64,000 nt of DNA from Thermoplasmatales archaeon SG8-52-3 (GTDB taxonomy: Archaea > Thermoplasmatota > E2 > DHVEG-1), in NCBI GenBank assembly GCA_001595915.1, contig LSSG01000019.1:5408-69407 (forward strand), read 5' to 3'. The notes beneath the pieces were generated by a model. It worked only from the letters and a program-made list of their open reading frames with translations. It was not told the origin of the DNA and ran no database searches. The stretch's first letter is position 1; every line of letters begins with the position of its first letter. Both the position numbers and the translations under genes were made by a program. Shown one piece after another: positions 46,260 through 61,935 of this stretch.

Positions 46260-48089
46260 ATGTTAAAAGGAAAACTTGGTATCATTGATTTATCAAAGAA
46301 TAAAATTACTATAAAACAAACTTCAGAGTCTTTAAAAAAGATACTTTATGGAGGAAGAGGTCTTAACAGCTATTATCTTTATAAAATGATAAAACCTAGT
46401 ATTGATCCATTTTCACCAGAAAACGTTTTAATTTTTGGTACAGGTTTTCTTACAGGGACTCTTGTCCCAAATTCTAGTCGTTTTAATGTCTCAGCAAAAT
46501 CACCAGAAACTGGTATTTTAGGAGACTCTAACTGTGGAGGTTACTTTGCAGCAGAAATGAAATATGCAGGTTTTGATAGATTTATTATTATTGGAAAATC
46601 TAAGAAACCATGCTATCTTTATATAACAGATAATAAAATAGAAATAAAGGATGCAAGAGATTATTGGGGGATGGATACAACAGATGTTCAACAGACTCTT
46701 AGAAGAGATTTAGGACATGTTGAAGTAGCATGTTGTGGTGTTGCTGGTGAAAATCTTGTAAGATTTGCATGTGTGAGAACAGGTGTAAAAAATGCAGCTG
46801 GTAGATGTGGCCTTGGTGCAGTTATGGGTTCAAAACAATTGAAGGCTATTGCAGTAAAAGGAACTCAGGGTATACAAATAGAACATCCTGAAGAAATGCT
46901 TGAAACTGTCGAACAACTAAAAGAATATATTATGAATTCAAAAATAACATCAATTCTTGGTACTGTCGGAACACCCCTACTTTATGAGGTATCTAATACA
47001 CTTGGCGCCATTCGTACAAAAAATAGTCAGTTAAACGCTTGGTCAGAATCATTAAATGCAGAGGAAATAGAGAAACATGTTGAAAAAATGATTAGTTGTT
47101 CCTCATGTATTGTACATTGTCGTCATAGAAACAAGCTAGGTGGTGAAGGACCAGAATATACTGCAGTTGGTTTACTTGGCGCAAACATTGGTATTGATGA
47201 TCCCTGTAAAGTAATAGAATTAAATAATATATGTAATGAATTAGGTTTAGATATTTCATCAAGTGGAACTATTCTTGCCTGGGCATTAGAACTTTATGAA
47301 CGAGGCATCATTGATAAGAAAATAACAGAGGAAGAATTATGTTTTGGGAATTTTGAACTTGCTAAAAAATTATTATATAAAATTTCCCGGCGCAAAGGAT
47401 TTGGTAATATTCTAGCTGAAAGTACAAAAAATATTGCAAGATTTGGTGAAGAATCTAAAGACTATCTTATTGCTATTAAGAATTTACCTCAAAGCGATCC
47501 TCATGATTGTAGATATATCAAGGCATTTGCTCTTGGTATTGCCACTTCTTCCAGAGGAGCAGATCATCTTAGAAGTAGACCAACTTTGGAAATATTTTTA
47601 AAACTACCTCAGGAAGTTAAAGAAAAAATATATGGTAAAGGAATTCCAAATGATCCAACATCGTATATTGCTAAAGAAAAAACAATATATTTTTCAGATA
47701 ATATTTTTGCTATGATTGATTGTCTTGGAATATGTAAATTTATATGTCATGGTTTCAATAGTCCCCATTTCGTTGATTATACATGGATGAAGAAACTCAT
47801 TCACAGTGCGTCTGGTTGGACAGTTAATGAAAATGATTTAGAAATGGTTGGAAAAAGGGTAATAGATATTGAAAGGATGTTTAATAATCGTGAAGGTATA
47901 TCAAAAAAAGACGATACCTTACCTAAAAGATATTTTGATGATCCAATGCCTTTAAATTTATCAAAAGGTCATCACATTGATAGAAAGGAGTTTGATAAAC
48001 TCCTTACAAATTATTATAAAATTAGAGGATGGACTAACGATGGTAAAGTAAAAAAAGAACGTATAAATGAATTGGAGGCTTTAGCTTGA
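46260..48089 (+). CDS. aor: Tungsten-type aldehyde:ferredoxin oxidoreductase (AOR family)
   Basis: GGRGLNSYYLY…FGTGFLTGT…SRFNVSAKSPETG…DSNCGGYFA…CSSCIVHCRH…GICKF. Confidence 0.9.
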   Translation: MLKGKLGIIDLSKNKITIKQTSESLKKILYGGRGLNSYYLYKMIKPSIDPFSPENVLIFGTGFLTGTLVPNSSRFNVSAKSPETGILGDSNCGGYFAAEMKYAGFDRFIIIGKSKKPCYLYITDNKIEIKDARDYWGMDTTDVQQTLRRDLGHVEVACCGVAGENLVRFACVRTGVKNAAGRCGLGAVMGSKQLKAIAVKGTQGIQIEHPEEMLETVEQLKEYIMNSKITSILGTVGTPLLYEVSNTLGAIRTKNSQLNAWSESLNAEEIEKHVEKMISCSSCIVHCRHRNKLGGEGPEYTAVGLLGANIGIDDPCKVIELNNICNELGLDISSSGTILAWALELYERGIIDKKITEEELCFGNFELAKKLLYKISRRKGFGNILAESTKNIARFGEESKDYLIAIKNLPQSDPHDCRYIKAFALGIATSSRGADHLRSRPTLEIFLKLPQEVKEKIYGKGIPNDPTSYIAKEKTIYFSDNIFAMIDCLGICKFICHGFNSPHFVDYTWMKKLIHSASGWTVNENDLEMVGKRVIDIERMFNNREGISKKDDTLPKRYFDDPMPLNLSKGHHIDRKEFDKLLTNYYKIRGWTNDGKVKKERINELEALA

Positions 48090-48544
48090 AATATCTTTAT
48101 GTATATCCTGAGAAATGCACTGGGTGTAGAGAATGCTCTATTGCATGTTCACTTAGCAAATTTGGAGAATGTAACCCTAAGAAAGCAGCTATTACTATTG
48201 TAAGAGATGAATTCAATAGATATGAGTTTCCAATAATTTGCTTTCAATGCGAAGATCCAGTATGCTTAAAGTTCTGCCATCAGAATGCATATCAAATAAA
48301 AAATGGAATAGTTATTAGAGATAAAGATAAGTGTATCGGATGCAGACTTTGTGCAACATTATGTCCTTATAATTCTATTACTTCTATTGATGATGAGATT
48401 ATAAAATGTGATCTATGTGAGGGAGACCCTAAATGTGTAAAATATTGTTCTACAGGTGCAATTCAATACCTTGATGAAACAGAAGAGCTTGAAAAAAGAC
48501 GTAAAAAAATGACAGAGAAATTTTTAGAGATTAATAAAAAATAG
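48086..48544 (+). CDS. 4Fe-4S polyferredoxin-type electron-transfer subunit (AOR-associated)
   Basis: There is a 4-nt overlap with aor. CTGCRECSIAC…CFQCEDPVCLKFC…CIGCRLCATLCPY…CDLCEGDPKCVKYC. Confidence 0.85.
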   Translation: MKYLYVYPEKCTGCRECSIACSLSKFGECNPKKAAITIVRDEFNRYEFPIICFQCEDPVCLKFCHQNAYQIKNGIVIRDKDKCIGCRLCATLCPYNSITSIDDEIIKCDLCEGDPKCVKYCSTGAIQYLDETEELEKRRKKMTEKFLEINKK

Positions 48545-48654: not shown

Positions 48655-49032
48655 ATGAAAAAAAAATTGATATCATCGGGAATTGTTTTATTATTCATAA
48701 TTACAATATTTACTAGTACAATTAGTGCTGGTTTTATTAAAAATGAAAATCTATTGTCATCTCTTTCAAATCCTAAAATTAGTGGAATAGTACTTAGATC
48801 ATATGTTATTGGAAATGCTACAAATGGTAAACAAATAGGTCGAATTGCATTAATAGAATTTTCAAAGGTTGAATTTAAAACTATTCGCCTTTTACCTCCT
48901 GGATTTGGATATGTAAGTTATGAAAATGTAACTGTATTAATTTTTGGATTAAAATCTCAGATTTCACAAGGTCCATTTGATTTAGATACAAAAGCTGAAA
49001 ATAATAAAGTGTCATCTATTATTTTTAATTAA
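48655..49032 (+). CDS. Hypothetical small exported protein
   Basis: It has an N-terminal signal-like segment (KKKLISSGIVLLFIITIFTSTISA). No motif was recognised. Confidence 0.45.
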   Translation: MKKKLISSGIVLLFIITIFTSTISAGFIKNENLLSSLSNPKISGIVLRSYVIGNATNGKQIGRIALIEFSKVEFKTIRLLPPGFGYVSYENVTVLIFGLKSQISQGPFDLDTKAENNKVSSIIFN

Positions 49033-49056: not shown

Positions 49057-50298
49057 TTAAATATTCATTTTGGAAGAAATTACCTCTGGATTAATAAAAA
49101 AATTATCATCTAATAATCTATTAAGAATGTTACTTACATCACTTCCTTTTTTCATTAAACTGTAAAAAGTTCCAGTATTTCTGATGGTGCCAATAAACTG
49201 AAGACCAACGATTTTATTGTTTTTTAATAAAATCTTTTTAGAGGTTTGTGGGGTAAATCTAGAAATGGTTTTACATTTTCCAATTTCTTTTGACGTTTGA
49301 CCCATTGCAACAATTGGTGTGTTGAAAACATCTAAAACATTTACTACCTCTGCACCAGTATATTCAATATTTTCTCCAGTAATATTTAAACCTGCAATTC
49401 TTCCTTGCTCAATAGCATTTGGCCATATAGCAAATGATCCTTTTCTTCCTTCAATTTGTTCCCAGACCTCAGTTATGTCTCCAGCAGCAAAAATATCTTT
49501 TTTATTTGTTTTCATTTTTGAATTTACTATAATTCCTTTATTTACCTTAATTTCAGAGTCTTTTACTATATCAGTATTTGGAGAAACACCTATTGCAAGT
49601 ACCACCATATCACATGATATTTTCTTATTATCAATTGAAACACTTTCAACAATTTTTTTTCCATTTACACTTTTTACTGTATTGTTTAAAATTAGTTTTA
49701 TTCCATTATTTTTTAGAATATCACTAACTTTTTTTGAAATATCTGAGTCGATCATTCTTGATAATATATACGGAAGCATTTCTACAATTGTTACTTTTAT
49801 TCCTCTTAATTTCAGCATCGTAGCGGTTTCTATACCCATGAAACCTCCACCAATCACTACAGCATGTTTTACACCTTTTTTTATATGATTAATTATTCCT
49901 ATTGCTGAATCAAGTGTACCCATAATATGCACACCCTCAAGGTTTATTCCTTTCATTTCTTTTAGAGTAATAGGTTTGGCACCTGCTGCAATTAACAACT
50001 TGTCAAAATTTATGCTATTTCCTTTTGAATCTATAATTTTTTTATTATCTGGAAGAATCTGAATTATTTCAGTATTTTTTACAAATTTTACATTATAACT
50101 TTTATAAAAATTTTTGTCAAATCGAAGAATTGTTGATTTATCAATTTCTCCTCCAATTAAGTTTGGTAAAGAACATGGAGAATAAGCAGGATATTTCTCT
50201 TTTGATATGATTGTTATATCTGATTTTTTATCAATTGAGCGAATGGCTTGAATGGCACTGATTCCAGCCCCACCATTTCCAATTATTACAAAGTGCAA
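49057..50298 (-). CDS. FAD-dependent pyridine-nucleotide-disulfide-family oxidoreductase
   Basis: FVIIGNGGAGISA…YSPCSLP…VVIGGGFMGIETA…FAAGD. Confidence 0.8.
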   Translation of the reverse strand: MHFVIIGNGGAGISAIQAIRSIDKKSDITIISKEKYPAYSPCSLPNLIGGEIDKSTILRFDKNFYKSYNVKFVKNTEIIQILPDNKKIIDSKGNSINFDKLLIAAGAKPITLKEMKGINLEGVHIMGTLDSAIGIINHIKKGVKHAVVIGGGFMGIETATMLKLRGIKVTIVEMLPYILSRMIDSDISKKVSDILKNNGIKLILNNTVKSVNGKKIVESVSIDNKKISCDMVVLAIGVSPNTDIVKDSEIKVNKGIIVNSKMKTNKKDIFAAGDITEVWEQIEGRKGSFAIWPNAIEQGRIAGLNITGENIEYTGAEVVNVLDVFNTPIVAMGQTSKEIGKCKTISRFTPQTSKKILLKNNKIVGLQFIGTIRNTGTFYSLMKKGSDVSNILNRLLDDNFFINPEVISSKMNI

Positions 50299-50319
50299 TA
50301 GAATCCCTTCTAAAAATCC

Positions 50320-51267
50320 TTAGGCACCTATATACTCTGGAAGTTCGGATCCTCTAATTAGAGCAACTATAGTTGAATTAATTGGTGTAGGAATGCCCTT
50401 TTTCTTCCCATAATTTACTATCTTACCATTAATAAAACCTATCTCTGTTGGATTCTTCTTTTCGATATCTACATGCATTGAGGTTCTATGATGACCTGCT
50501 TTATCAAGATAATTCATACAAAATTCTAAAAAATTATCATTAAAATGGTAACCATTTGCAGCAGCAACTTCTATTGCCTCACGTAATATTGCTTCAGATA
50601 GATTCCTAGTTTCTTTATAGTTCATCATCTGTTTCATGGTTCTTCTTGTTAATGCACAAACAGGACTTAGAGCTGCATTTAGTATAATTTTTTCCCATTC
50701 ATATTTTTTAATTTCTTTTGTAAAATCAGTTTCCAAATCTGATTTAGTAATTATAACTGCGAGTTCCTTTGCTTTCTTTTCAGCTGAAGAATCTATCATT
50801 CCGATATAATTTGGGGCATTAAAAAATGACATTCTGATTTTTCCATTATCTATAAGATTTCCAGCATAATTTACTACAATTCTAAGGGTATTTTCTTTTC
50901 CAAATTCATCAGCAATCAAATCTTCATTATCAAGTCCATTCTGTAAACTAATATAAGTTATTCCAGATTTTGTTACCTGTTTTAATAAAGAAAGGATTTG
51001 AGGAAGTACCGATGCTTTTACTGATATAAATAAAAAATTTATATCTTTATCAACCAACTCATCAATACCATAACAAATATTTTCTTCAGGAAATTTAACG
51101 TTTATATCTTTAAAACCTGTTATTGAAAGTCCATTTTTCTTAATTTCGTCCATATGTGCTTTTAGAATATCTATAAGTGTAACATCATGCCCAGCCTTTG
51201 CAAGGTGGGCAGCCATTATTGCACCAACAGGACCTGTACCTAAAATTCCAAATCTATATTTATCCAT
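50320..51267 (-). CDS. Ketopantoate-reductase (PanE/ApbA) family 2-oxo/hydroxy-acid reductase
   Basis: FGILGTGPVGAIMAAHLAKAGHDVTLI…SLQNGL…TSMHVDIEKKNPTEI. Confidence 0.75.
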   Translation of the reverse strand: MDKYRFGILGTGPVGAIMAAHLAKAGHDVTLIDILKAHMDEIKKNGLSITGFKDINVKFPEENICYGIDELVDKDINFLFISVKASVLPQILSLLKQVTKSGITYISLQNGLDNEDLIADEFGKENTLRIVVNYAGNLIDNGKIRMSFFNAPNYIGMIDSSAEKKAKELAVIITKSDLETDFTKEIKKYEWEKIILNAALSPVCALTRRTMKQMMNYKETRNLSEAILREAIEVAAANGYHFNDNFLEFCMNYLDKAGHHRTSMHVDIEKKNPTEIGFINGKIVNYGKKKGIPTPINSTIVALIRGSELPEYIGA

Positions 51268-52825
51268 CTTTTCTTCCCCCTGAATTATATCTTTCCCTTA
51301 AAATGCGATGTAAAATCTTTCCAGTGGGTGTTCGTGGCATCTCACTATCTTTTATGAAAATTACTTTTTTTGGTCTTTTATATCCACTTATTTTATTACG
51401 ACAAAAATCCAATATTTTTTCTTCAGAAATCTTGGTATTTTCTTTAGGTACAATTACTGCAGTAACTTGTTCACCCCACTTATCATGAGGTAGACCAATA
51501 ACAGCAACATCAAATACGTCTGGATGTGTGACTATAATCTCTTGAACTTCAGTTGGATATACATGTTCACCACCAGTGATTATCATGTTATCTTTTCTAT
51601 CAACTATGTAATAGAATCCATCATTATCACGCATTGCCATATCACCAGCAGAAAACCATTCACCTAAAAAGGAGCTTTTTGTTTTCTCGGGCATTTTATA
51701 GTATTCATCAAACATCATAGGGCCACGTGAATATAATTCCCCTATCTCATTAACACCAACTTCATTTCCATTTTCATCAAGTAATTTAACACAATCTGTT
51801 CCAACTGCTTCGTATCCAATGGAGCCAAGCTTTCTCATCTGGTCTTCAGGTTTAAGAAGAGTTACTAAACCTGCTTCAGTGGAACCATAAGCTTCATATA
51901 ACTCGACGCCAGGAAAAAATTTCATAATTTCTTTTTTCATAGATTTTGTTACAGGGGCTGATGAACAGAGCAATTTTCTAATTGAGGCTACATTACGTTT
52001 TTTTGCATTTTCTGGTGCATTTAATATTAAATTATAATGCGTTGGAATTAAAGATATATACGTAATTTTTTCCTTTTCAATGATTTCTAATATTTCTTCT
52101 GGTCTAAAATGTCGTGCAGGATGAATATATGCAGTTCCACCAATATATAAAAATAAAAATGTATAGAAAGTTGAATTTACATGATAAAGAGGCATAACAT
52201 TGAGACAGACGTCATGCTCATTAAATCCAAAATCAACTGAATTGATTAAAAAGAAGGCAATATATGATTCATGAGACCGGACAACACCTTTTGGTATGCC
52301 CGTTGTGCCAGATGTATACAGTATTATCCAAGTATCCTTACAATTAATATCTGCTTCAGGTTCTTCGTCTATAGAATCTTTTATAAAATCTTCATATTCC
52401 AAGTATCCTTTTATCTTATTTCCGACAACTATATATCTATCAGATCTTACATTTATCAAATCATCTTTTATTGAATTGACTAAAGAAACGAACTCTTCAT
52501 GAACAATAAATGCTTTAGCATCAGAGTTCTCCATTAAATTTACTATTTCTCTACCTACAAAACGAAAATGAACAGGTACAATTATTAGACCAGTTTTTGC
52601 TGCTGCAAGATATGCCTCAACAATCTCTATACTATTTTCTAAAAGGACTGCAAATTTATCGCCTTTCTTGAGTCCTAGAGAAAGAAGGCTATGAGATAGT
52701 TTATTTACTCTCTTATTTAACTCAGTATAAGTAAGACTTCTATCTTTTTCTTTCAAAGCAATTGTTTTTGGGAATTTCTTTGAATTCATCTTTATCATTT
52801 GACCAAGATTTAACCAGCAGGTCAT
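51260..52825 (-). CDS. AMP-forming acyl-CoA synthetase
   Basis: [16 protein letters not shown]…YGSTE…[35 protein letters not shown]…[11 protein letters not shown]. GGAGG lies upstream. The 3' end overlaps the next gene by 8 nt. Confidence 0.85.
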   Translation of the reverse strand: [521 protein letters not shown]

Positions 52826-52854
52826 AGTAGCTTTCCTCCATTCTATTTTAATGA

Positions 52855-54054
52855 TTATGATTTATTGCTTTCGAGTTGTTCTATGAAAGCTTCAATATTT
52901 GTCTTGAATTGTTCGTCAGATAGACATCTTAGATCATTAAAATCTCCATCTACAACTAAGCTTGGAATACCTGTTTCTTTTTCCAACCTTTGTGGCATAC
53001 CATAACGACAATTCGAATTATTTGAACATGATTTTGAATCATGATATATAATACCATCAATTTTAAAGAAATCAATCATTTTTTTCAGATATTTCTCTTT
53101 TGCTTCGTCTGCTCGAACAATAAATAATTCAGTATATGCCTTTGCCATGCTTCTAAAGGGATCATTTGCATCAAAATCTGTAAATATCCAACTATTACAA
53201 TATGTTGATGCAACAACACATGTTCTTTGAATAGCAAATAATTCAGAATGTGCTCTTAACCTTCCCCATATAGGCATACCATCCCAATACAATCTATATT
53301 TTTCATCTTCTACTGCTCCATCACAATTTTTTATCCTATCCTCAAGTTCTGAAATTAATAATTTATAATAATCAATAGCTTGTTTTGTCCCTCTTAAAAC
53401 TACTGCAGGTCCCATCTGGATACTTCCATCAAAAAACGTTAATGGTGAAGGTACATTAGAGGCTGTATCTAACACTTTTTTCCAAAGATCAGAACATTGA
53501 CGTGAAAGAGACAGTACCTTTTTTAATTCCATTTTATCAAAGTTATTACCTGATATTTTTTCAAAAGGACTAATTAAATTTTCCATTTGTTGAGCTATTG
53601 CTTTGATATGGTCATTTGTGATATCATTGATATTTCTAAATGTATGAATACCAAGCATTGGAACATTGAACTCTTTAGAATAAAATCTAAACCAATCCTG
53701 AACATCTCTACATTGATTAGTATTAAATACTAAAACATCAGGTTTGGGTATACTTTTTATACTTTCATAAGCTTTTGAAAGGGGTGTATATTTCTTTATG
53801 TATGCCCCAATATCCGAAGTAAGATATGAACAAACCTCAGGGGAATAACCAATTGCATTTGCATAAGGTATCATATCTGTTGCTACTCTACTTGCTCCAA
53901 GCATTGCACTATGATTTTCAGGAAAATAGACATGGAAACCAAAACTTCTTAATATTTCTGCAGGACCAACACTTGAGCACCAGGCAACCTTTTCCTTATC
54001 TGTTTTTGTAGCAGAATCAAGATCATTATAATAATTGGCCATTATCTTTTTCAT
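52855..54054 (-). CDS. Orphan HgdA-like subunit of the 2-hydroxyacyl-CoA dehydratase / benzoyl-CoA reductase / double-cubane-cluster protein family
   Basis: EKVAWCSSVGPAEILRSFGFHVYFPENHSAMLGA parallels the HgdA N-terminal region …EKVGWSSSKFPCELAESFGLHVGYPENQAA (as recalled). Conserved Cys occur (VCSYLTS, QCRD, YHDSKSCSNNSNC). No HgdB-type partner is adjacent. Confidence 0.7.
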   Translation of the reverse strand: MKKIMANYYNDLDSATKTDKEKVAWCSSVGPAEILRSFGFHVYFPENHSAMLGASRVATDMIPYANAIGYSPEVCSYLTSDIGAYIKKYTPLSKAYESIKSIPKPDVLVFNTNQCRDVQDWFRFYSKEFNVPMLGIHTFRNINDITNDHIKAIAQQMENLISPFEKISGNNFDKMELKKVLSLSRQCSDLWKKVLDTASNVPSPLTFFDGSIQMGPAVVLRGTKQAIDYYKLLISELEDRIKNCDGAVEDEKYRLYWDGMPIWGRLRAHSELFAIQRTCVVASTYCNSWIFTDFDANDPFRSMAKAYTELFIVRADEAKEKYLKKMIDFFKIDGIIYHDSKSCSNNSNCRYGMPQRLEKETGIPSLVVDGDFNDLRCLSDEQFKTNIEAFIEQLESNKS

Positions 54055-54197
54055 CTCTCTTGTTGCTTCGAATCTTTTACGAGATGACTTTTCATCAGCG
54101 ATATTATCTCCCCCGATCTGATAATGGCTTTAACAGATAGTAAACCCAAATAAAGATTGAACTTATTATTTTTTTGTGTTTTTTCAGTTTTGAGCAT

Positions 54198-55640
54198 TCA
54201 ACTAATATTCTTACTTCTTATAATTTCTTTTCCAGCTTCTTTTGCTTCATTAAATGATAAAATATATTTTAAACCATTTCTTAGTAAGTTAAATTCTTTC
54301 CGCAAGAGAATCTTAAAGATTTGTTCAAACATATAATAAGGTCTAAAATAAAAAGATGTAAATGCTTTTGTGGTATAATGGATTAATTCATCCTCTGTAA
54401 AATTACTGAGATTGTGACTTTTGTCTGCAAGCACCTCATACTGATTTGGTTTTATCTTTTTATTTTTCACAGCTTCTACCCATAGAGCAGATCCCATCCT
54501 ATAAATCAAAGGAACAAAATTGACCCTGTCAAGTGGAAGAGAACGGGCAAGTTTTATTGTATTTTCAATATGTTTATCAGTCTCCATAGGAGCACCAATA
54601 ATAAATGACGCCCCAATAAAAAATTTCATTTCTCTTGCTAATTTTACAGTCTTTCTAATTTGTTGAAGAGTTATATTCTTGTTATAAAAATCAAGAACAT
54701 CTTGATTTCCAGATTCAAGTCCATAAAAAATATATTTAACACCTGCCTTTTTCATTTTTAAGTAGAGGTCCTTCTCAGCTGTATCAACCCTAGCTCCTTG
54801 AATAAGTAAATCAACATTTATATCTGATTCTAGAAGCATATCAAATATTTTATGAGCTCTTTTTTTATCTGCTAGAAAGTTGTCGTCAACTATTACAATC
54901 GATTTATATATGTCACTTATTTCTTGAATCTCTTTTATTACATTTTCTGCCGACCTCATCCGAAAACTCCAGTTCTTGATAATATTACCATATCTACTAC
55001 AAAAACGACAATGATATGGACAACCTTTACTTGAGATAAAATTTGTAACTTTCTTTTTAAATAAATATCCAAAAGAAATTGTACTATAATCATATTTATC
55101 AACTAGATGTCTTGCTGGGAATGGTATCTCATCTAAATTTTCAATTACTTCTAACTGCTTTCCTGAACGAATCAAATTTTTTTCTTTATAAAAAATACCA
55201 TTAATATTTGCTAGCTGTTTTTTTCCCTCTAAATATTTTGATATGTCAAGAATAACATTTTCCCCCTCACCTGCTACACTGATATCTGCATGAGGAATAT
55301 CATTTAATGATCGTTTTTGAAGAAAAGTACAATGTGGTCCACCAATAATCAATGTTATATCTGAATCGATTTCCTTTATCAATTTTGAGATATCTGCTGC
55401 AGGTACGCAATCATCTGTATAAACAGACATTCCCACAGCATCACATGAATTCAATGATTTTTTTAATCTATCTTTTGTTATTTTTTCTGCAAAATAATCA
55501 AGAATTTCCACCTTATGGCCTTCTTTTTCAAGAGATGCTCCAATATAAAGTAATCCCAAAGGTGGGAGATTGAGAGATTGTTTATTCAGAGACTGATTAT
55601 TTTCTTCTCGGAATGCTGGTCTCAGAAGAAGAAATTTCAT
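54198..55640 (-). CDS. B12-binding-domain radical SAM enzyme, paralog A
   Basis: N-terminal B12-type Rossmann region: LLLRP…PPLGLLYIGASLEKEGHKVEILD…IIGGPHCT. Radical SAM motif: SSKGCPYHCRFCSRY. Confidence 0.85.
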   Translation of the reverse strand: MKFLLLRPAFREENNQSLNKQSLNLPPLGLLYIGASLEKEGHKVEILDYFAEKITKDRLKKSLNSCDAVGMSVYTDDCVPAADISKLIKEIDSDITLIIGGPHCTFLQKRSLNDIPHADISVAGEGENVILDISKYLEGKKQLANINGIFYKEKNLIRSGKQLEVIENLDEIPFPARHLVDKYDYSTISFGYLFKKKVTNFISSKGCPYHCRFCSRYGNIIKNWSFRMRSAENVIKEIQEISDIYKSIVIVDDNFLADKKRAHKIFDMLLESDINVDLLIQGARVDTAEKDLYLKMKKAGVKYIFYGLESGNQDVLDFYNKNITLQQIRKTVKLAREMKFFIGASFIIGAPMETDKHIENTIKLARSLPLDRVNFVPLIYRMGSALWVEAVKNKKIKPNQYEVLADKSHNLSNFTEDELIHYTTKAFTSFYFRPYYMFEQIFKILLRKEFNLLRNGLKYILSFNEAKEAGKEIIRSKNIS

Positions 55641-55715
55641 ATAATCTACTCCCCGAATTAAATATTATCATGAAAATCTAAGATATATAACTTTTTATTA
55701 AAAAAAATATAAAAA

Positions 55716-57164
55716 TTATTGTTTTGCCTGAGGATTTATTTTTTTGAAGGTTCCCATTTCCCGTTTCATTGAAAAAAGAAGTTTAAGTCCAGAATAAAGC
55801 AAGGTATAGTCTTTTCTAATTAAATTTCTAAATATTTGACTTATCATATATGTTGGTCTGTAATAAAAACGTTGAAATGCATCAAGGGTAAAGTCCATTA
55901 GTTCTTTTTTTGTGAAATTTCCAAGACCATGCTCAGAATCAGCAAAAAAGAATATTTCATCAGTATCTTTTTGTATTCTGTTATCTTCTACAGCCTCATT
56001 CCATAATTGAGAACCTTTAATATATCTCAATGGCCCAAAACCTGCAAAATCTAGAGGAAGTGAACAGGCAAATTTTATTGTGTTTTCAATATGCTCTTTT
56101 GTTTCCATTGGAGCACCTAAAATGAAACTACCCATTGTAATAAAATTCATTTTTCTACTCAATTTTACTGCATTTCTTATTTGAGGGAGAGTAGTTCTTT
56201 TGTTATAAAAATCAAGAACATCCTGATTTCCAGATTCAATTCCAAAAAATATAATTTTTACTCCTGCTTTTTTCATTTTTTTATAGAGTTCTTTACTTGC
56301 GGCATCAACTCTAGTACCATAAATCCATAGGTCAATATCCTTTCTCATCTCTATAAGTCCATCAAATATTATATGCGCCCTTCTGTTATCTGCAAGAAAA
56401 CTGTCATCAACAATGTTTATTGTTTTATATTTTTCATTAAGCTCTTCAAATTCCTTTAAAATGTTCTCAGCTGACCTTTGTCTAAATGTCCATTCATCAA
56501 AAAAATTGTTATATCTCGCACAAAATCTACATTTAAATGGGCATCCTCTACTGGTTATTGTTGAAGTTACAGTTTTTCTTAGTTTAAAACCAAATGGAAA
56601 ATCACCATAATCATATTTATCAACTAGATGTCTTGCTGGAAAGGGTAAATCATCTAAATTTTCAATAATTTGTAGGGGTTTTCCTAGTTTTATATTTCCA
56701 TTGTTTCTATAATAGATGCCATTAATATCTTCTAATTTCTTTTTTCCTTGAAAATATTTCACTAAATCAAGAATGACATGCTCTCCTTCACCTACTACAC
56801 TAATGTCTGCCAATGGTATATCCTGTAATGATTGTTTTTGTACAAATGTACAATGAGGTCCACCAATTATTTGTGGAATATCTGAATCAATTTCTTTAAT
56901 TGTTTTTGAGATATTATTGTATGGAATAAAATCAATATCACTACATACAGTCATTCCAACAGCATCAGTTTTTAATAGTGTGTTTTTTAGTTTTTCTTTT
57001 GAAATATTTTCCATACAAAAATCAAGAATCTCAACAGTATGTCCTTCATTTTCGAGTATTGCCCCAATATAAAGCAATCCAAGCGGGGGAAGAGTAGAAG
57101 GATCTAGTAACAAATTTTTTGTAATATTTTCGTAAATTCCAGGTTTAAGAAGAAGAATTTTCAT
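55716..57164 (-). CDS. B12-binding-domain radical SAM enzyme, paralog B
   Basis: PPLGLLYIGAILENEGHTVEILD…IIGGPHCT…TSRGCPFKCRFCARY. It is colinear with paralogs A and C over the full length. Confidence 0.85.
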   Translation of the reverse strand: MKILLLKPGIYENITKNLLLDPSTLPPLGLLYIGAILENEGHTVEILDFCMENISKEKLKNTLLKTDAVGMTVCSDIDFIPYNNISKTIKEIDSDIPQIIGGPHCTFVQKQSLQDIPLADISVVGEGEHVILDLVKYFQGKKKLEDINGIYYRNNGNIKLGKPLQIIENLDDLPFPARHLVDKYDYGDFPFGFKLRKTVTSTITSRGCPFKCRFCARYNNFFDEWTFRQRSAENILKEFEELNEKYKTINIVDDSFLADNRRAHIIFDGLIEMRKDIDLWIYGTRVDAASKELYKKMKKAGVKIIFFGIESGNQDVLDFYNKRTTLPQIRNAVKLSRKMNFITMGSFILGAPMETKEHIENTIKFACSLPLDFAGFGPLRYIKGSQLWNEAVEDNRIQKDTDEIFFFADSEHGLGNFTKKELMDFTLDAFQRFYYRPTYMISQIFRNLIRKDYTLLYSGLKLLFSMKREMGTFKKINPQAKQ

Positions 57165-57230
57165 TTGAACCAGTTACTCTCTTGAAAATAGGATAAATAT
57201 TAGTTATTTAAATGTTATATATTATCTATT

Positions 57231-58661
57231 TTATCCATCTGGATTACTTTTTTTAATAGGTGTTTTTCCCCATTTATTTATTATTGTCAAATATTTTAAA
57301 CCGTTTAATAGTAGTCGAATATCATTTCTTAATAATGACCTATAAATCTGTTTAAAGATATAAATTGGTCTAAAATAAAAAGCTTTATAAGCATCTATTG
57401 TAAAATCTATTAATTCCTTTTTTGTAAATTTTCCGAGAGTATTATCTTTTTCAGCAATAACTGCATATTCATTTGGTGAAATTTTTTTATTTTTTACAGC
57501 TTCCATCCATAATGAAGATCCAGTTAAGTATGTTAAAACTCCAAAATTCGCAAGATCTATTGGTAAAGAACAAGCAAATTTAATGGTGTTTTCAATTTGC
57601 TTTTTTGTTTCGATAGGTGCTCCAAGTATAAAAGAAGTATAAACAAAAAAATTCATTTTTCTAGCAAGTTTTATTGCTTTTTTTATTTGATTTAAATTGA
57701 TATTCTTGTTATAAAAATTAAGAATATTCTGATTTCCAGATTCAAGGCCATATAGAATGGTTTTTACTCCTGCTTTTTTCATTTTTTTATATAAATTTTT
57801 ATCTGCTGTATCAACCCTTGCTCCTTCAATAAAAAATTCCATATCGATATTAGAATCTAGTATCATGTCAAATATTTTATTTGCTCGTTTCTTATCAGCT
57901 AAAAAATTATCATCTACAATCACAACAGAATCATATTTTTTATTTATTTCCCTTAATTCATTTATTACATTCTCTGCAGATCTAACTCTAAATCTCCAAT
58001 CCTCAATAACGTTACTATATTTAGAGCAAAAACTGCATGAAAAAGGGCAACCTCTACTAGAAATTAGAGCTGTAACATTATTCATTATCTTATAATACCA
58101 GGGTGAGATACCATATTCATATTTTTCAACAAGATGTCTTGCGGGAAATGGTAAAGAATTTAAATCTTTGATTATCTTTGGAGGTTTTCCTTGTTTTATT
58201 AAGCTTTTTTTTCTATAATAAATGCCATTTATATCTGATAACTTTTTTTCACCATTCAAATAATTGGCGATATCTAAGATTACTTGTTCACCTTCTCCTA
58301 TTACACTGATATCAGCATTTGGTATGTTTATTAAAGACTGTTTTGGAAGAAAAGAACAATATGAACCACCAATAATTATTGGAATTTCGGGAGTTATTTT
58401 TCTAATTTTTTTTGAGATATCATTTACTAATTGAAAATTATCGATAAATGTTATTCCAACTGCATCAGATGAGTTTAATGAGTTTTTTAATTTATCAAAT
58501 GAAATGTCTTTAACTAAATAATCAAGAATTTCAACCTTATAACCCTCTTTTTCTAAAACAGCTCCCAGATATAATAGACTTAATGGAGGATGTGTCATCG
58601 GAAAAGAGATGATAGGTTTATCTTTAAGTCTAGCTGCTGGTCTTATTAGAAGAAATTTCAT
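57231..58661 (-). CDS. B12-binding-domain radical SAM enzyme, paralog C
   Basis: PPLSLLYLGAVLEKEGYKVEILD…IIGGSYCS…SSRGCPFSCSFCSKY. Confidence 0.85.
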   Translation of the reverse strand: MKFLLIRPAARLKDKPIISFPMTHPPLSLLYLGAVLEKEGYKVEILDYLVKDISFDKLKNSLNSSDAVGITFIDNFQLVNDISKKIRKITPEIPIIIGGSYCSFLPKQSLINIPNADISVIGEGEQVILDIANYLNGEKKLSDINGIYYRKKSLIKQGKPPKIIKDLNSLPFPARHLVEKYEYGISPWYYKIMNNVTALISSRGCPFSCSFCSKYSNVIEDWRFRVRSAENVINELREINKKYDSVVIVDDNFLADKKRANKIFDMILDSNIDMEFFIEGARVDTADKNLYKKMKKAGVKTILYGLESGNQNILNFYNKNINLNQIKKAIKLARKMNFFVYTSFILGAPIETKKQIENTIKFACSLPIDLANFGVLTYLTGSSLWMEAVKNKKISPNEYAVIAEKDNTLGKFTKKELIDFTIDAYKAFYFRPIYIFKQIYRSLLRNDIRLLLNGLKYLTIINKWGKTPIKKSNPDG

Positions 58662-58812
58662 TGTCTACCTTACCTCCCATTTTCAAATCTGATTTAAGAT
58701 TTAAATAATTACCTAAAGAGAAAAATACCAAATAAAATCATAAAATGCCAAAAATGATATACAGCTAATTATATCCATTTTTTAAAATTACATTATCATA
58801 TTTAGTGAAAAT

Positions 58813-59595
58813 ATGCTAGATAATGAATATTATGCAGGTATTGACGTTGGTACATCTTATATAAAAGTTGTAATAATTGATAACAAAAACAAGATACTAG
58901 GATCGTTTGTTGATAGAACAGGATCCGATCTTAAAAAATCAATAAAAGTAGTTTATGAAAATGCTTTGAGCTCTGCAAAAATTTCTGAAAAAAATTTTAA
59001 ATCTATTGTTGCTACAGGTTTTGGTAGAGAAAATGTCTCTTTTGCAGATGGTATAATAACCGAAATTAGCTCTCATGCAAAAGGTGCTTATCATTATTTT
59101 CCAAGAAAGATAATCGTTATTGATATTGGGGGACAAGATACAAAAATTATAAAAATTGATGATAAGGGTAAGATTCAAGGCTTTAAAATGAATAGAAAAT
59201 GTGCAGCAGGTACCGGTTCTTTTCTAGAGGAAATTGCATATAAACTCAATATTCCAATAAATGAAATGAATACTTTAGCTGCAAAATCTGATAAAGAGAC
59301 AGCATTAAGTAGCTTTTGTACAGTTTTTGCATCAACTGAGATTATTACGAGAATAAAGGAAGGAGAAAGAATTGAGGATATGGTTAAAAGTGCTTTTGAA
59401 TCAATTATTAGAAGAGTCATCGAAATGGACACATTAAAAGGTGAAGTTATGGTCTCTGGAGGTGTGGTTGCATATAATGATATCATTTTAAAAATTCTAG
59501 CAAAGCAAGTTGGAAAAGATATCTTAAAACCTCCAAAACCCCAGTTATGTGGAGCTATTGGTGCAGCTTTATTTGCAAAGGATTTAAAATCCTAA
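58813..59595 (+). CDS. BcrAD/BadFG/HgdC-family ATPase (archerase-type activator)
   Basis: YAGIDVGTSYIKVVII…IDIGGQDTKIIKIDDKGKIQGFKMNRKCAAGTGSFLEE…FCTVFASTEI…VSGGVVAYN. Confidence 0.85.
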   Translation: MLDNEYYAGIDVGTSYIKVVIIDNKNKILGSFVDRTGSDLKKSIKVVYENALSSAKISEKNFKSIVATGFGRENVSFADGIITEISSHAKGAYHYFPRKIIVIDIGGQDTKIIKIDDKGKIQGFKMNRKCAAGTGSFLEEIAYKLNIPINEMNTLAAKSDKETALSSFCTVFASTEIITRIKEGERIEDMVKSAFESIIRRVIEMDTLKGEVMVSGGVVAYNDIILKILAKQVGKDILKPPKPQLCGAIGAALFAKDLKS

Positions 59596-59665: not shown

Positions 59666-59914
59666 ATGGGTGATTGGAAGGTGAAAATAAAACTATTTAT
59701 ACCTATAGTTTTAGTAACTATAATATTTGCTTCCACACTAGCGATAGCAGCAAAACCATCTGATCTACCAGATCAAGCATATAATAATGGACCAAGTTTA
59801 GATAAACAAATGGCCCGTTATTTCCGTCTCGATGAAATAGCTTATCGGCTTTGGTTGGAAAAAGGTTGGGTACCAGAAGGATTACTAATGGCTATGGGTA
59901 GCTCAGGTCGTTAA
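59666..59914 (+). CDS. Hypothetical small signal-peptide/membrane-anchored protein
   Basis: KIKLFIPIVLVTIIFASTLAIAAKPSD is followed by a 55-aa soluble tail. No motif was recognised. Confidence 0.45.
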   Translation: MGDWKVKIKLFIPIVLVTIIFASTLAIAAKPSDLPDQAYNNGPSLDKQMARYFRLDEIAYRLWLEKGWVPEGLLMAMGSSGR

Positions 59915-60047
59915 TTTATATATAAATTTCGATGAGAAAAAATTAGTTTAATCTAAATCTTTAAATTCATTCTTTTTTTCTTTTTTTTATTTTATTTAAA
60001 AATTTAGGGAAAAATTAAAATCATATTTCTTACTCTAGATATATAAA

Positions 60048-60989
60048 ATGTGGAATTATCATTCATTAGACTATGATTATCCGCCCTATCGACCACCTAA
60101 TGAGGCAGGGTCTGCTCTAATTAGGGCATCTAGAGGTTGTCCATGGAATAGATGTCTTTTTTGTACAATGTATAAAACACTAAAATTCCAACCAAAATCA
60201 AGTGAAGAAGTATTAAAAGATATTGATAAGGCAGCAAAAATATATGCTAGAGCTAAAACCATATTTATTGCAGACTCAGATAGCCTTGTTATGAAGGATA
60301 TTGACGATATAATAAAACACATAAAACTTCGTTTTCCTTATGCAGAACGAATTACATCTTATGCGAGAGCTAAAACCTTAATGAAGTTAGGTATTGATAA
60401 ATTAAATAAAATTAAAAAGGCAGGTCTCACGAGGGTTCATGTGGGTCTTGAATCAGGTGATAAAAAAACATTAGAATTTTTAAAAAAAGGTTCAACACCT
60501 AAAGAAATGATTGAAGGTGGAAAAGTAGCAAAAGAGGCAGGACTTGATCTTTCATTTTATATTCTTATAGGTGCTGGTGGAAAAAAAAGATTAAAAGAAC
60601 ATGCAATAGAGTCAGCAAGAGTTTGTAATATAGTAAAACCGGATTTCATTCGTTTAAGGACTCTTGTTGTTCAGCGTGGTTCACTTCTAGAAGAAAAAAT
60701 GAAAGAAGGTAAATACAATCCAACTTCGCCCGTTGAAAAATTAAAGGAAGTAAAGATATTTTTAGAAAATCTTGATGTTAAAAAATGTGAGCTTGCATCT
60801 GATCATTTCACTAATTACATCTGGGTAGGAAGTAATATTGTTTATAGGGGAATTTATGGAGTTTTACCCAAAGATAAAAAAGATATGTTAGGTATTTTAA
60901 ATCAAACTCTTAAGTTCTTAGAAATAACTGATGGTGAGATTCTTGATGCTACAATTTTATATGAAAGAGGAATGATTAATTCTCTTTAA
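60048..60989 (+). CDS. Radical SAM protein with atypical CX4CX2C cluster motif
   Basis: PPNEAGSALIRASRGCPWNRCLFCTMYK is read from GGT TGT CCA TGG AAT AGA TGT CTT TTT TGT. Downstream are GLTRVHVGLESGD and a TIM-barrel-like remainder. Confidence 0.75.
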   Translation: MWNYHSLDYDYPPYRPPNEAGSALIRASRGCPWNRCLFCTMYKTLKFQPKSSEEVLKDIDKAAKIYARAKTIFIADSDSLVMKDIDDIIKHIKLRFPYAERITSYARAKTLMKLGIDKLNKIKKAGLTRVHVGLESGDKKTLEFLKKGSTPKEMIEGGKVAKEAGLDLSFYILIGAGGKKRLKEHAIESARVCNIVKPDFIRLRTLVVQRGSLLEEKMKEGKYNPTSPVEKLKEVKIFLENLDVKKCELASDHFTNYIWVGSNIVYRGIYGVLPKDKKDMLGILNQTLKFLEITDGEILDATILYERGMINSL

Positions 60990-60993
60990 TTTT

Positions 60994-61272
60994 TTATCCA
61001 CCACTAACAGGTATAAAAAATAATAGATTATCATCTTCCTTAAGTTTTGTATCTAACATGTTTATTGCTGATATAGGTTTATCATTTACAAAAATGCAAA
61101 TGTAATCAGTTAATTCTTGATTTTTTTTAAAAATTTCTTTTTCTAGTTTTGGATACTTCTTAACTAGAATTTTTAGTAAATCTAAAATGGTTATAACTTC
61201 TATATTTAGCTCTAACTCAGACTTTCCAATTATATCTTTAAATGGTCTTAGAAATTTTAATTTAAGTTTCAT
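60994..61272 (-). CDS. MoaD/ThiS/SAMP-type ubiquitin-like small protein ending in Gly-Gly
   Basis: It is 92 aa. The C-terminus …DDNLLFFIPVSGG* has the beta-grasp-type pattern. Confidence 0.7.
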   Translation of the reverse strand: MKLKLKFLRPFKDIIGKSELELNIEVITILDLLKILVKKYPKLEKEIFKKNQELTDYICIFVNDKPISAINMLDTKLKEDDNLLFFIPVSGG

Positions 61273-61307
61273 TTGATATTCACCGATATTTCATAAATGA
61301 CTTTTAT

Positions 61308-61598
61308 TTATTCCTCAAGTATATCTTCTTCATTTGAAATATTTATCTTTGTGGTTTTTACAAACTTGTCTTTTATTTCTTTTAGTTTAAGATACAGATA
61401 ATAATCACTTGAGATAATAAATGGATGTTTTAGGTTACCTTTTTCAAATTCTTCTTTTAAACCATCTTTAATTTCTTCAAAAAGAAAATCAGTTGTTTTG
61501 CTTATCACTATATCTACAAAATCCTCAATAAAAATTTCGTCTTTTACTTTTTGTTGATTGTACCATTCAACTACTTCTTTTAGGATTTTGTCTTTCAT
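61308..61598 (-). CDS. Hypothetical small acidic protein
   Basis: It is an intact 96-codon ORF, co-directional with and 35 nt upstream of the GG protein. No motif was recognised. Confidence 0.4.
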   Translation of the reverse strand: MKDKILKEVVEWYNQQKVKDEIFIEDFVDIVISKTTDFLFEEIKDGLKEEFEKGNLKHPFIISSDYYLYLKLKEIKDKFVKTTKINISNEEDILEE

Positions 61599-61935
61599 TT
61601 ATCTCTCCAATCCCACCAGAACCCATATAAACTTTATGTTTATAAAACTATTATATTTTATTTGAATATTTTCAATATCTCTATAAATTTTCTTTAAAAA
61701 TTATATTCTCCAATAATATTAACTTATTACATATTATATTAGAATTTGTTATGAAAACATATAAAATTAACAAAAATCTTGATATAATTTATCATGGTTA
61801 CAATTATAACGGTAATATATTGTTTTCGGCATTATAGTAACAAAATGTTATGAATTATAACAATTTTAATTTAATTTGGTTATTTTTTGAATAATAAGAT
61901 TTATATAATATTCAAATTATATTAAATTGATTTGC

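Follow-up and report, generated by a model that had tools for sequence, protein, structure and literature searches.

Characterized 2-hydroxyacyl-CoA dehydratases (HgdAB, HadBC, FldBC, and LcdAB) are built from an alpha and a beta subunit and are primed by an archerase-type ATPase. In HadBC/HadI of Clostridioides difficile (PDB 3O3M and 4EHT), a 2-oxoacid reductase supplies the substrate, CoA activation follows, and the water is removed by ATP-primed radical dehydration. FldABC/FldI of Clostridium sporogenes, described as a heterotrimer of a CoA-transferase with an alpha/beta pair, takes aryl-lactyl-CoA to a cinnamoyl-CoA type product in a reductive route to arylpropionates. Here we analyzed a 10.5-kb locus that encodes a lone, HgdA-like relative of these subunits together with one archerase-type activase and three B12-binding radical S-adenosylmethionine (SAM) enzymes. 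It lies in a 64-kb stretch of DNA (the window) from the Thermoplasmatales archaeon SG8-52-3, a member of the Thermoprofundales (MBG-D) from sediment of the White Oak River estuary. We found that the locus is composite: in one clade, three class-B radical SAM paralogs have been inserted into a predicted dehydratase module. We consider it probable that the first layer, positions 49057-54102 plus the activase at 58813-59595, is an archaeal copy of a widespread predicted aryl-lactyl-CoA dehydratase module, with the radical SAM insertion as a separate second layer.

A comparable gene block has been described in Desulfococcus multivorans, Dmul_24840-24900 (Doerries et al. 2016, PMC5109826). It encodes IorA, IorB, an ACT protein, a ~319-aa reductase, a ~269-aa activator, a 416-aa dehydratase "alpha" for which no beta is listed, and a ~518-aa CoA ligase, and a thiolase (396 aa), a fusion that joins 3-hydroxyacyl-CoA dehydrogenase to enoyl-CoA hydratase (HADH/ECH; 680 aa), and TRAP genes are found nearby (PMC5109826). 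The dehydratase and its activator are annotated as phenyllactate dehydratase alpha and activator, and the gene in the PanE position is annotated as a "putative phenylpyruvate reductase" (PMC5109826). The cluster proteins are formed specifically on phenylacetate/phenylpyruvate, and phenyllactate supports growth; the assignment is a prediction backed by proteomics and this growth test (PMC5109826). A 2026 paper reports a "singular" FldB-like gene in another Desulfobacterales strain and, citing the Fld enzyme, proposes the route phenylpyruvate to phenyllactyl-CoA to cinnamoyl-CoA to benzoyl-CoA and acetyl-CoA (PMC13416013). The families, sizes, and order of the D. multivorans block are those of the bacterial loci that we recovered, and the neighbor families and sizes from our clustering match Table S1 of PMC5109826. 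The window keeps the Desulfococcus-type reductase, ligase, dehydratase, and activator, and it has orthologs of the thiolase and HADH/ECH fusion 31-35 kb away. Unlike the D. multivorans block, the locus has no IorAB, ACT protein, or TRAP genes; its order is HgdA-ligase-PanE with a divergent activase, a flavin adenine dinucleotide (FAD) oxidoreductase and aldehyde:ferredoxin oxidoreductase (AOR)/Fe-S genes are added, and three radical SAM genes are inserted.

The open reading frame (ORF) listing gives seven minus-strand genes (49057-58661), which run head to tail with intergenic gaps of 21-143 nt, and one plus-strand gene (58813-59595). The ligase and PanE genes overlap by 8 nt (51260-51267), and the divergent spacer between the first radical SAM gene and the activase is 151 nt (58662-58812). 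A first-pass annotation, made from the letters of this DNA, had reported these eight genes with their domains and coordinates, the overlap, and the spacer; the ORF listing, the coordinates, and Pfam (E values of 1e-15 to 1e-83 for the domain assignments) bear all of this out. The features of the locus are as follows.

58813-59595, plus strand: archerase-type activase (HgdC/HadI/MbdQ-like ATPase), single gene, 260 aa; BcrAD_BadFG 4e-47, 161.6 bits.
58745-58812, no strand: ancestral divergent spacer, activase-proximal half, with the conserved TATATCATTTTTGGCAT at its end; colinear with the intact spacers of relatives.
54186-58744, minus strand: inserted block of ~4.56 kb with three tandem class-B radical SAM paralogs; without counterpart in the intact spacers of relatives.
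57231-58661, minus strand: B12-binding radical SAM paralog 1 (group a), 476 aa; Pfam B12-binding and Radical_SAM.
55716-57164, minus strand: B12-binding radical SAM paralog 2 (group b), 482 aa; Pfam B12-binding and Radical_SAM.
54198-55640, minus strand: B12-binding radical SAM paralog 3 (group c), 480 aa; Pfam B12-binding and Radical_SAM.
54055-54185, minus strand: ancestral spacer, HgdA-proximal half, in which the HgdA-like gene probably has its true 5' end (~54102); conserved in relatives with and without the radical SAM genes.
52855-54054, minus strand: solitary HadB-type (alpha-type) 2-hydroxyacyl-CoA dehydratase homolog, 399 aa, proposed aryl-lactyl-CoA dehydratase; HGD-D 1e-65, 222.6 bits.
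51260-52825, minus strand: AMP-forming acyl-CoA ligase, 521 aa, proposed to activate the 2-hydroxy acid; AMP-binding 1e-82, 278.5 bits.
50320-51267, minus strand: PanE/ApbA-family NAD(P)H 2-oxoacid reductase, 315 aa, proposed arylpyruvate reductase; ApbA_C 5e-36, ApbA 3e-23.
49057-50298, minus strand: FAD/NAD(P) pyridine-nucleotide-disulfide-family oxidoreductase, 413 aa, probably AorC-like; Pyr_redox_2 4e-62.

The HgdA-like protein is most similar to HadB. In a PDB search, its closest solved relative was the substrate-binding alpha subunit HadB (3o3m_A, E = 5e-56, residues 9-398), followed by the benzoyl-CoA reductase subunits MbdO (2e-36) and then BzdO, and DCCP (6eno) gave 0.004. Its NCBIfam scores were 252.6 bits for HadB NF052455 (cutoff 750), 167 for BcrB (cutoff 486), and 76 for BzdO (cutoff 449); the double_cubane model gave 64.7 bits against a cutoff of 350 and covered only residues 147-394. 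Six cysteines (26, 75, 115, 187, 286, and 343; spacings of 49, 40, 72, 99, and 57 residues) are invariant in 81/81 family members. Cys75, Cys115, and Cys343 align with HadB cysteines and are consistent with the three-Cys cluster site of HadB, where they would hold one [4Fe-4S] cluster with an open iron; the three-Cys rule for this site is taken from PMC7317905. The other three, Cys26, Cys187, and Cys286, are invariant in all 81 members but are not cysteines in HadB, and Cys26 is common to MbdO. A second cluster, a proton relay, and a redox switch are candidate roles for them. The window protein has the fold, the three cysteines, the archerase, and the companion enzymes of the characterized dehydratases, while it has no adjacent beta gene and does not pass their equivalog model. 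The known enzymes carry out an ATP-primed syn-elimination of water from (R)-2-hydroxyacyl-CoA, a reaction that homology and neighborhood predict for the window protein. One homolog of the protein is publicly named phenyllactate dehydratase.

No beta subunit was found beside it. There is no second HGD-D gene in the cluster, and a family hidden Markov model (HMM) run over the window with filters off matched only the BzdN/BzdO pair (32505-34981). The same search found no beta-type gene adjoining an HgdA-like ortholog in any of 80 genome loci (63-78% identity) from Thermoplasmata, Asgard archaea, Desulfobacterales, Anaerolineae, Aminicenantes, and other groups. It does detect beta-type genes where they are present, namely, BzdN of the window and, in locus L050, a separate alpha/beta pair. 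Two neighboring genes were considered as a hidden HgdB and rejected: the gene of ~700 aa that most loci carry after HgdA encodes an ADP-forming acyl-CoA synthetase, and in Asgard loci the ~405-aa gene before HgdA encodes a thiolase. We conclude that the family is a beta-less variant at its loci. HadBC is thus like the window system in its closest subunit, its three cysteines, its activase (HadI, 3e-50), and its logic; it differs in that the 80 loci have no HadC-type beta, in the three extra invariant cysteines, in the AMP-forming ligase that replaces the CoA-transferase, and in the HadB score of 252.6/750. Literature searching gave no usable account of a Thermoplasmata 2-hydroxyacyl-CoA dehydratase or of a homodimeric dehydratase, and the Thermoprofundales genome paper makes no mention of the genes of the dehydratase/radical SAM locus.

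The first-pass annotation had described a lone HgdA-like subunit paired with a single archerase-type ATPase, and both points hold here, the solitary state extending to all 80 related loci. It had likened this architecture to DCCP/DCCP-R and YjiM/YjiL. That analogy stands for the gene content, one HGD-D protein plus one archerase, but not for the sequence, which is of the HadB type (5e-56 versus 0.004). The DCCP 7-Cys motif, CX19CX18-19CX29CX166-170CX32-34CX32C, of which six cysteines are [8Fe-9S] ligands (PMC7317905), was unmatched as a regular expression in the HgdA-like protein, and the suggested count of its cysteines against the DCCP ligands left only Cys343 aligned with a DCCP Cys. The absent motif, the E value of 0.004, and the 64.7 bits against 350 rule out a DCCP/YjiM identity. 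In addition, the channels of DCCP seem too tight to admit a CoA ester, while the HgdA-like gene is linked to a CoA ligase. The HgdA-like protein is presumably homodimeric, a state that is proven for DCCP.

The start of the HgdA-like gene is probably 48 nt further upstream than annotated by the ORF listing, at ~54102, with a non-ATG codon; the NCBI protein has 415 aa. Orthologs conserve the resulting N-terminal extension of 16 residues, and a conserved ribosome-binding site, GGGGGAGAT, stands just upstream of it. In relatives, the ancestral ATG directly follows GGGGGAGAT, and it is mutated (AAT/AAA) in the clade that bears the radical SAM genes. Since the extension is still in frame, the start must be either a non-ATG codon (ATC near 54102) or the downstream ATG at 54054.

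We asked which genes accompany HgdA-like orthologs by clustering the neighbor ORFs within 10 kb in the 80 loci without reference to the window; many loci are cut off at contig ends, which makes the counts lower bounds. The linked core comprises the activase (55/80 loci), the ADP-forming acyl-CoA synthetase (53/80), the AMP-forming ligase (51/80), and PanE (51/80). A thiolase was found in 25 loci, a PaaK-type ligase in 22, IorB in 19, IorA in 18, the HADH/ECH fusion in 17, the ACT protein in 12, and a TRAP transporter in 9. Oah orthologs (67-70% identity) lie within 10 kb of a solitary HgdA in four Chloroflexi loci (L016, L018, L044, and L079). The ADP-forming synthetase is a fused protein of ~700 aa encoded after HgdA (e.g., L008 11181-13274 and L075 11210-13333); it is absent from the window locus and its closest Thermoplasmata relatives, with none among the scanned window ORFs. 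No homolog of the three radical SAM proteins was found within 10 kb of an HgdA ortholog (0/80 loci).

The activase passes NCBIfam TIGR00241 CoA_E_activ with 221 bits (cutoff 125.4), and its PDB matches are MbdQ (1e-52), HadI (3e-50), HgdC (1e-40), and DCCP-R (4e-33). Its Cys130 and Cys169 align with MbdQ cysteines; by reference to the HgdC structure, we take these to be the ligands that bridge the [4Fe-4S] cluster. The nearest PDB entries of the AMP-forming ligase are FadD5, FadD13, and a feruloyl-CoA synthetase, and its orthologs in the 51 loci (62-85% identity) are on the same strand as HgdA. The PanE-like reductase scores 191.9 bits with NCBIfam TIGR00745 (cutoff 141.35), and its nearest PDB entries are of the ketopantoate-reductase family.

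The last gene of the operon, for the FAD oxidoreductase, had been taken as a pathway reductase in the first-pass annotation, and this is probably not its role. It faces the following convergent gene pair.

46260-48544, plus strand: tungsten-type aldehyde:ferredoxin oxidoreductase (46260-48089; AFOR_N and AFOR_C by Pfam), then a small poly-ferredoxin subunit (Fer4; 48086-48544).

The AOR matches 1aor (7e-120) and AorB (8c0z_A, 1e-80) in the PDB, and the small Fe-S protein matches AorA (8c0z_C, 5e-28). The FAD oxidoreductase matches the FAD chain (8c0z_E) of the aldehyde oxidoreductase from Aromatoleum at 1e-41, essentially tied with its top match, and it scores equally against CoA-disulfide reductase and NADH oxidase structures; its best NCBIfam model is PadH-like (259 bits, cutoff 475). 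The FAD gene was found only in Thermoplasmata loci, where Fer4 and AOR follow in 5/6 of those that reach far enough, the contig of the sixth ending there. The genes that match the three chains of AorABC (Aromatoleum aromaticum, PDB 8C0Z) lie side by side in Thermoplasmata. Unlike in AorABC, the FAD gene has the other orientation, closing the HgdA operon and converging with the AOR/Fe-S pair. From these matches and this linkage, it seems more likely that the FAD oxidoreductase is the NAD(P)-linked electron module of the AOR, which it would serve as in AorABC, than a pathway reductase. Between the genes for the Fe-S subunit and the flavoprotein, a 125-aa ORF without a Pfam match (48655-49032) keeps its position in relatives (L086, L089, and L174, 128-131 aa) and is perhaps an extra AOR-associated subunit.

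The three radical SAM proteins belong to class B, whose members (BchE, HpnJ, HpnR, PhpK, Grs, Gmm, Cgm, and Ted) have in common an N-terminal B12-binding domain and a CxxxCxxC core. All three match PF02310 (55.6-69.5 bits) and PF04055 (85.1-89.6 bits), with E values of 1e-15 to 1e-25, and carry the CxxxCxxC motif near residue 205-208 (CPFSCSFC at residue 205 in paralog 1), and Cys207, Cys211, and Cys214 are invariant in an alignment of 16 sequences. Their best profiles are BchE, HpnJ, and PhpK-type, with all scores at ~100-170 bits against cutoffs of 360-750. They match no characterized subfamily among BchE, HpnJ, HpnR, PhpK, ApyD, and Mmp10-type (best, 153-168 bits; cutoffs, 481-578); for paralog 2, the best match is BchE with 164 bits (cutoff 481), and the nearest solved structure to paralog 3 is AprD4 (1e-12). 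In the searches made, we found neither a characterized ortholog nor a conserved partner gene. The paralogs are mutually 54-58% identical and 72-91% identical to their own orthologs, and therefore they are old groups and not a recent duplication. Among the 120 matches listed for the family, all were at least 55% identical, and every one named by organism was a Thermoplasmatales metagenome-assembled genome (MAG); the family is multicopy and, among these matches, has so far been seen only in this Thermoplasmata lineage. Another family paralog sits in an unrelated context. Near more distant B12-radical SAM genes, homologs of HgdA, the activase, or the ligase were found in 0/80 loci, and no consistent partner gene appeared among the metagenome matches listed, which are mostly 25-35% relatives in heterogeneous contexts.

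The number of radical SAM genes at the site varies with the relationship to the window. Three copies are present in the window and in L093/L174; paralog 1 is 78% identical to its ortholog there, paralog 2 has orthologs 82-91% identical in L086, L089, and L093, and the orthologs of paralog 3 are 72-88% identical. Two copies, without paralog 1, are present in L086, L089, and L090, where HgdA is 83-84% identical. Relatives with HgdA 73-78% identical have none, and there the activase faces HgdA directly. In CP070712.1 (HgdA 81% identical), a single radical SAM gene lies beside the activase, and HgdA-ligase-PanE lies ~480 kb away (L091 versus L088). In that record, the activase, its radical SAM gene, and the left-flank synteny block have kept their place, an N run lies just upstream of HgdA, and the moved HgdA-ligase-PanE genes adjoin an AOR, an aminotransferase, a glutamate dehydrogenase, and a glutamine synthetase. 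L174 (JGI Ga0209536_100001055, 45.8 kb) comes from the same metagenome and the same NCBI MAG and holds a second, diverged copy of the locus: three radical SAM genes (78, 91, and 88% identical to those of the window), HgdA, ligase, PanE, and the FAD oxidoreductase, facing Fer4-AOR. Either two related populations are combined in SG8-52-3, or a large stretch of the genome is duplicated.

The spacers show how the radical SAM genes are placed. When the window's activase-radical SAM 1 and radical SAM 3-HgdA spacers were spliced, they were colinear with the intact spacers of the radical SAM-free relatives L006, L009, L011, and L013. The first ~68 nt of the activase spacer (58812-58745), ending in TATATCATTTTTGGCAT, match the activase-proximal half of the relatives' spacers, and from 54185 downstream the sequence matches their HgdA-proximal half. 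Conserved in this half are a box, AAAAATAATAAGTTC, the motif TTTGCTATCTGTT, which reads TTTACTATCTGTT in the window, and the ribosome-binding site; the conserved upstream box of the HgdA operon occurs once in the window. Because the spliced spacers are colinear with the intact ones, 58744-54186 is a ~4.56-kb insertion into the divergent control region. Thus, the radical SAM array was inserted between the activase and HgdA in one genus-level clade and is not a conserved part of the module. The tandem array has a periodicity of 1506-1521 nt. A mobile cassette was considered and rejected, as the boundaries have no direct or inverted repeats and only the internal ~1.5-kb paralog periodicity was found. 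Scanning for sigma-70 promoters and terminators gave nothing informative (62 sites versus 60.5 expected; the host is archaeal).

For the dehydratase module, the wider window supplies candidates for the later steps of an aromatic route.

18906-22180, plus strand: thiolase (18906-20114) and 3-hydroxyacyl-CoA dehydrogenase/enoyl-CoA hydratase fusion (20141-22180), by Pfam; proposed side-chain beta-oxidation.
26762-27898, plus strand: Oah/BamA, 6-oxocyclohex-1-ene-1-carbonyl-CoA hydrolase; TIGR03200 571.2 bits (cutoff 464.45).
32505-36648, plus strand: complete class I benzoyl-CoA reductase of the Bzd type (BzdN-BzdO-BzdP-like-BzdQ), a separate system that has two ATPases of its own; BzdN, BzdO, and BzdQ above the NCBIfam cutoffs.

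The NCBIfam scores were 469.5 for BzdN (cutoff 453.8), 614.7 for BzdO (448.6), and 436 for BzdQ (380.2), and the third, BzdP-like gene, between BzdO and BzdQ, has an activase domain of 212 bits. The window thiolase is 65-71% identical to the HgdA-linked thiolase family, and the window fusion is 53% identical to the HgdA-linked fusion. Because the HgdA-linked thiolase, the HADH/ECH orthologs, Oah, and the Bzd set are present, the window fits a route from aryl-lactate to benzoyl-CoA. In this route, the PanE-like reductase would convert a 2-oxo acid, probably aromatic, to the 2-hydroxy acid (e.g., phenylpyruvate to phenyllactate), and the AMP-forming ligase would convert the aryl-lactate to aryl-lactyl-CoA. 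The beta-less HadB-type dehydratase, primed by one ATP-driven archerase electron, would then yield arylacrylyl-CoA of the cinnamoyl-CoA type. The thiolase and the HADH/ECH fusion at 18.9-22.2 kb would most likely turn this enoyl-CoA product into benzoyl-CoA along with acetyl-CoA, and BzdNOPQ (32.5-36.6 kb) would dearomatize the benzoyl-CoA for ring opening by Oah (26.8-27.9 kb). The Fld system has the same proposed substrate class and product type and also uses archerase activation; it differs in that the window context points to beta-oxidation to benzoyl-CoA. We infer the substrate, the direction of flux, the homodimeric state, and the role of the FAD protein. The first-pass annotation had left the locus open to a degradative role in an aromatic/AOR context, and this option is now favored by the Bzd set, Oah, the linked families, and the Desulfococcus annotation.

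Several observations weigh against an aryl-lactyl-CoA dehydratase module joined by an unrelated insertion. The substrate and the reaction type of the beta-less family rest on homology and neighborhood, and the orthology with D. multivorans is drawn from annotation, size, and order, not from sequence. The absence of a beta subunit covers locus neighborhoods, and a distant beta gene is possible. The dehydratase model gives no account of the three family-specific invariant cysteines (26, 187, and 286), and the best NCBIfam model is the aliphatic HadB, at 252.6 bits against 750, so that an aliphatic substrate is possible. The window also lacks the ADP-forming synthetase, IorAB, and PaaK-type ligase that are found with the module elsewhere. 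On the side of the insertion, the radical SAM genes of the clade that bears them still immediately precede HgdA on its strand, at gaps of 66-143 nt, and radical SAM gene 1 now stands behind the conserved distal spacer motif, a possible shared operator. Read-through cotranscription with HgdA is therefore possible; a clade-specific functional tie is conceivable too, though it seems to us improbable.

The module might instead serve a general or aliphatic amino acid fermentation of the reductive Stickland type (Leu, Glu, or other) with no specific aromatic link, in which a 2-oxo acid would be reduced, activated with CoA, and dehydrated, the enoyl-CoA reduced, and ATP gained via the ADP-forming synthetase. 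The best family model and structure match are indeed those of an aliphatic enzyme, the 2-hydroxyisocaproyl-CoA dehydratase alpha subunit, and the ADP-forming synthetase follows HgdA in 53 loci, but it is absent from the window. The host is a proposed protein degrader with an M14 carboxypeptidase gene adjoining, an aminotransferase and a glutamate dehydrogenase lie beside the operon in L088, and the window encodes an acryloyl-CoA reductase-like acyl-CoA dehydrogenase (14772-15911). However, the recurrent IorAB and PaaK-type ligase and the Chloroflexi Oah are neighbors with a specifically aromatic role, BzdNOPQ and Oah are encoded in the window, and the Desulfococcus cluster responds to phenylpyruvate and phenylacetate. 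We regard an aliphatic, Stickland-type role as unlikely, but as a serious competitor. A different chemistry for the solitary protein, that of an ATP-dependent low-potential reductase (BCR- or DCCP-like, e.g., for aryl-CoA dearomatization or dehydroxylation) with an unusual six-Cys Fe-S site, appears very unlikely. It would draw on the pairing of a lone subunit with one ATPase as in DCCP/DCCP-R (PMC7317905), on the six invariant cysteines where HadB has three, on the Cys26 held in common with the reductase subunit MbdO, and on the benzoyl-CoA reductase (BCR) subunit MbdQ as the best structural relative of the activase. The class I benzoyl-CoA reductases (BcrABCD, BzdNOPQ, and MbdONQP) do belong to the same superfamily, and MbdO is the second-best relative (2e-36), but they need two different HGD-D proteins and two different ATPases, and the HgdA locus encodes a single HGD-D protein and a single ATPase. 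HadB stands closest by a wide margin, the double_cubane and BcrB scores are far from their cutoffs (64.7 versus 350 and 167 versus 486), the DCCP motif is absent save for the one aligned Cys343, and the linked 2-oxoacid reductase and CoA ligase (51/80 loci each) fit 2-hydroxyacyl-CoA formation.

The radical SAM genes raise the question of whether the locus is one pathway or two layers. The first-pass annotation had proposed a single CoA-thioester pathway of all eight genes, in which archerase-driven dehydration or reduction would be combined with up to three radical SAM methylations or cyclizations of the CoA thioester. The genes do run head to tail on one strand with gaps of 21-143 nt, two or three radical SAM genes are linked to HgdA on several contigs (HgdA 82-90% identical to that of the window), and radical SAM gene 1 stands behind the conserved distal spacer motif common to the activase. 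The gene-neighborhood check suggested at the time has now gone against it: a B12-radical SAM neighbor was found in 0/80 HgdA-ortholog loci, and HgdA, the activase, and the ligase were found near 0/80 more distant B12-radical SAM loci. The copy number varies from 1 to 3, the radical SAM gene and the HgdA operon are ~480 kb apart in CP070712.1, the HgdA operon keeps its own conserved upstream region, and the Desulfococcus module is annotated and its cluster expressed with no radical SAM listed beside it. With the anatomy of the insertion, these findings make the single pathway improbable. A weaker tie can also be drawn, in which the three enzymes were recruited into an aryl-lactate/benzoyl-CoA island, act on aromatic acids or their CoA thioesters (C-methylation or other radical C-H functionalization) or take the archerase electron, and are transcribed from behind the operator-like motif common to the activase. 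We hold this to be more doubtful still; if true, the recruited enzymes would be a new pairing of archerase-type and cobalamin radical SAM chemistry. It is possible, though we lean against it, that the inserted enzymes tailor archaeal membrane lipids or an envelope molecule (methylation, cyclization, or desaturation, like Grs, Gmm, Cgm, or Ted) and that their adjacency to the dehydratase is accidental. Homologous B12-radical SAM enzymes carry out archaeal lipid tailoring with diverse chemistry (bioRxiv 10.1101/2025.10.20.683597), the family is multicopy and lineage limited among the matches listed, other paralogs lie near secreted or envelope-type genes, methyltransferases, and glycosyltransferases, and there are weak NCBIfam matches to HpnJ, HpnR, and a "lipid biosynthesis B12-binding/radical SAM" model. 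However, every NCBIfam score is far under its cutoff, the likeness to Grs, Gmm, Cgm, and Ted rests on their literature descriptions, the loci examined have no conserved lipid-gene partner, and at 476-482 aa the proteins fall under the >495-aa filter used for Cgm homologs (bioRxiv 10.1101/2025.10.20.683597). For the HgdA module itself, the earlier suggestion of a lipid role linked to the GGR gene found no support.

Other parts of the window surround the locus. Dense beta-oxidation and benzoyl-CoA lower-pathway genes fill 14772-30290; apart from the thiolase, the HADH/ECH fusion, and Oah (above its cutoff), they comprise two acyl-CoA dehydrogenases, of which one is acryloyl-CoA-reductase-like (500 bits), another AMP-ligase, of the MbcS-like kind, a Dch-like hydratase that stays under its cutoff (157 bits), a zinc-dependent alcohol dehydrogenase, a DUF35/ChsH2-like protein with an SCP-x-type thiolase, and a short-chain dehydrogenase/reductase. 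A MiaB/RimO-family radical SAM methylthiotransferase (30505-31785) lies directly upstream of the Bzd genes and is probably an unrelated modifier of tRNA or a ribosomal protein. A Bzd-type ATP-dependent benzoyl-CoA reductase is notable in a Thermoprofundales (MBG-D) archaeon, and an 855-aa Fe-S/NAD(P) flavoprotein after the set (to 39515), GltD/NuoG-like, could regenerate its low-potential electron donor. At 42865-46125 and 40956-41879 are a 447-aa nitroreductase-family protein, the 612-aa M14 carboxypeptidase, whose PKD and CarboxypepD_reg domains are consistent with extracellular protein degradation, and a YadA-head-repeat protein. On the activase side, 59666-63806 is a synteny block conserved in Thermoplasmata, with no evidence of a link to the dehydratase module; its genes encode an 82-aa ORF, a 313-aa radical SAM protein (Radical_SAM_C-like), a ThiS/Urm1-like protein (60994-61272), a 96-aa ORF, a 222-aa ORF, and a GGR-like flavoprotein (62592-63806). 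At the other end, 352-11202 is an oxidative-stress island with HSP20, four rubrerythrin-family genes, a class-V aminotransferase, a hybrid-cluster (prismane) protein and its Fe-S partner, a peroxiredoxin, two nitroreductases, a thioredoxin, and a ferredoxin-thioredoxin-reductase/rubredoxin fusion.

Taken on these terms, the proposed radical SAM-dehydratase pathway should not be carried forward as a new system. The beta-less, six-Cys HadB-type family departs from the alpha/beta rule for 2-hydroxyacyl-CoA dehydratases; it is large, with >7,500 homologs and archaeal and bacterial orthologs 63-78% identical, all of predicted function only. For sulfate reducers, the module offers a testable gene-level answer to how the side chain of phenylalanine, phenylpyruvate, or phenyllactate could be brought to benzoyl-CoA without PadEFGHI. 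For the Thermoprofundales, a 64-kb piece of an abundant benthic archaeon (MBG-D) encodes the entire predicted route from aryl-lactate to ring cleavage, which is relevant to the question of which organisms in anoxic sediments break down aromatic acids and aromatic amino acids.

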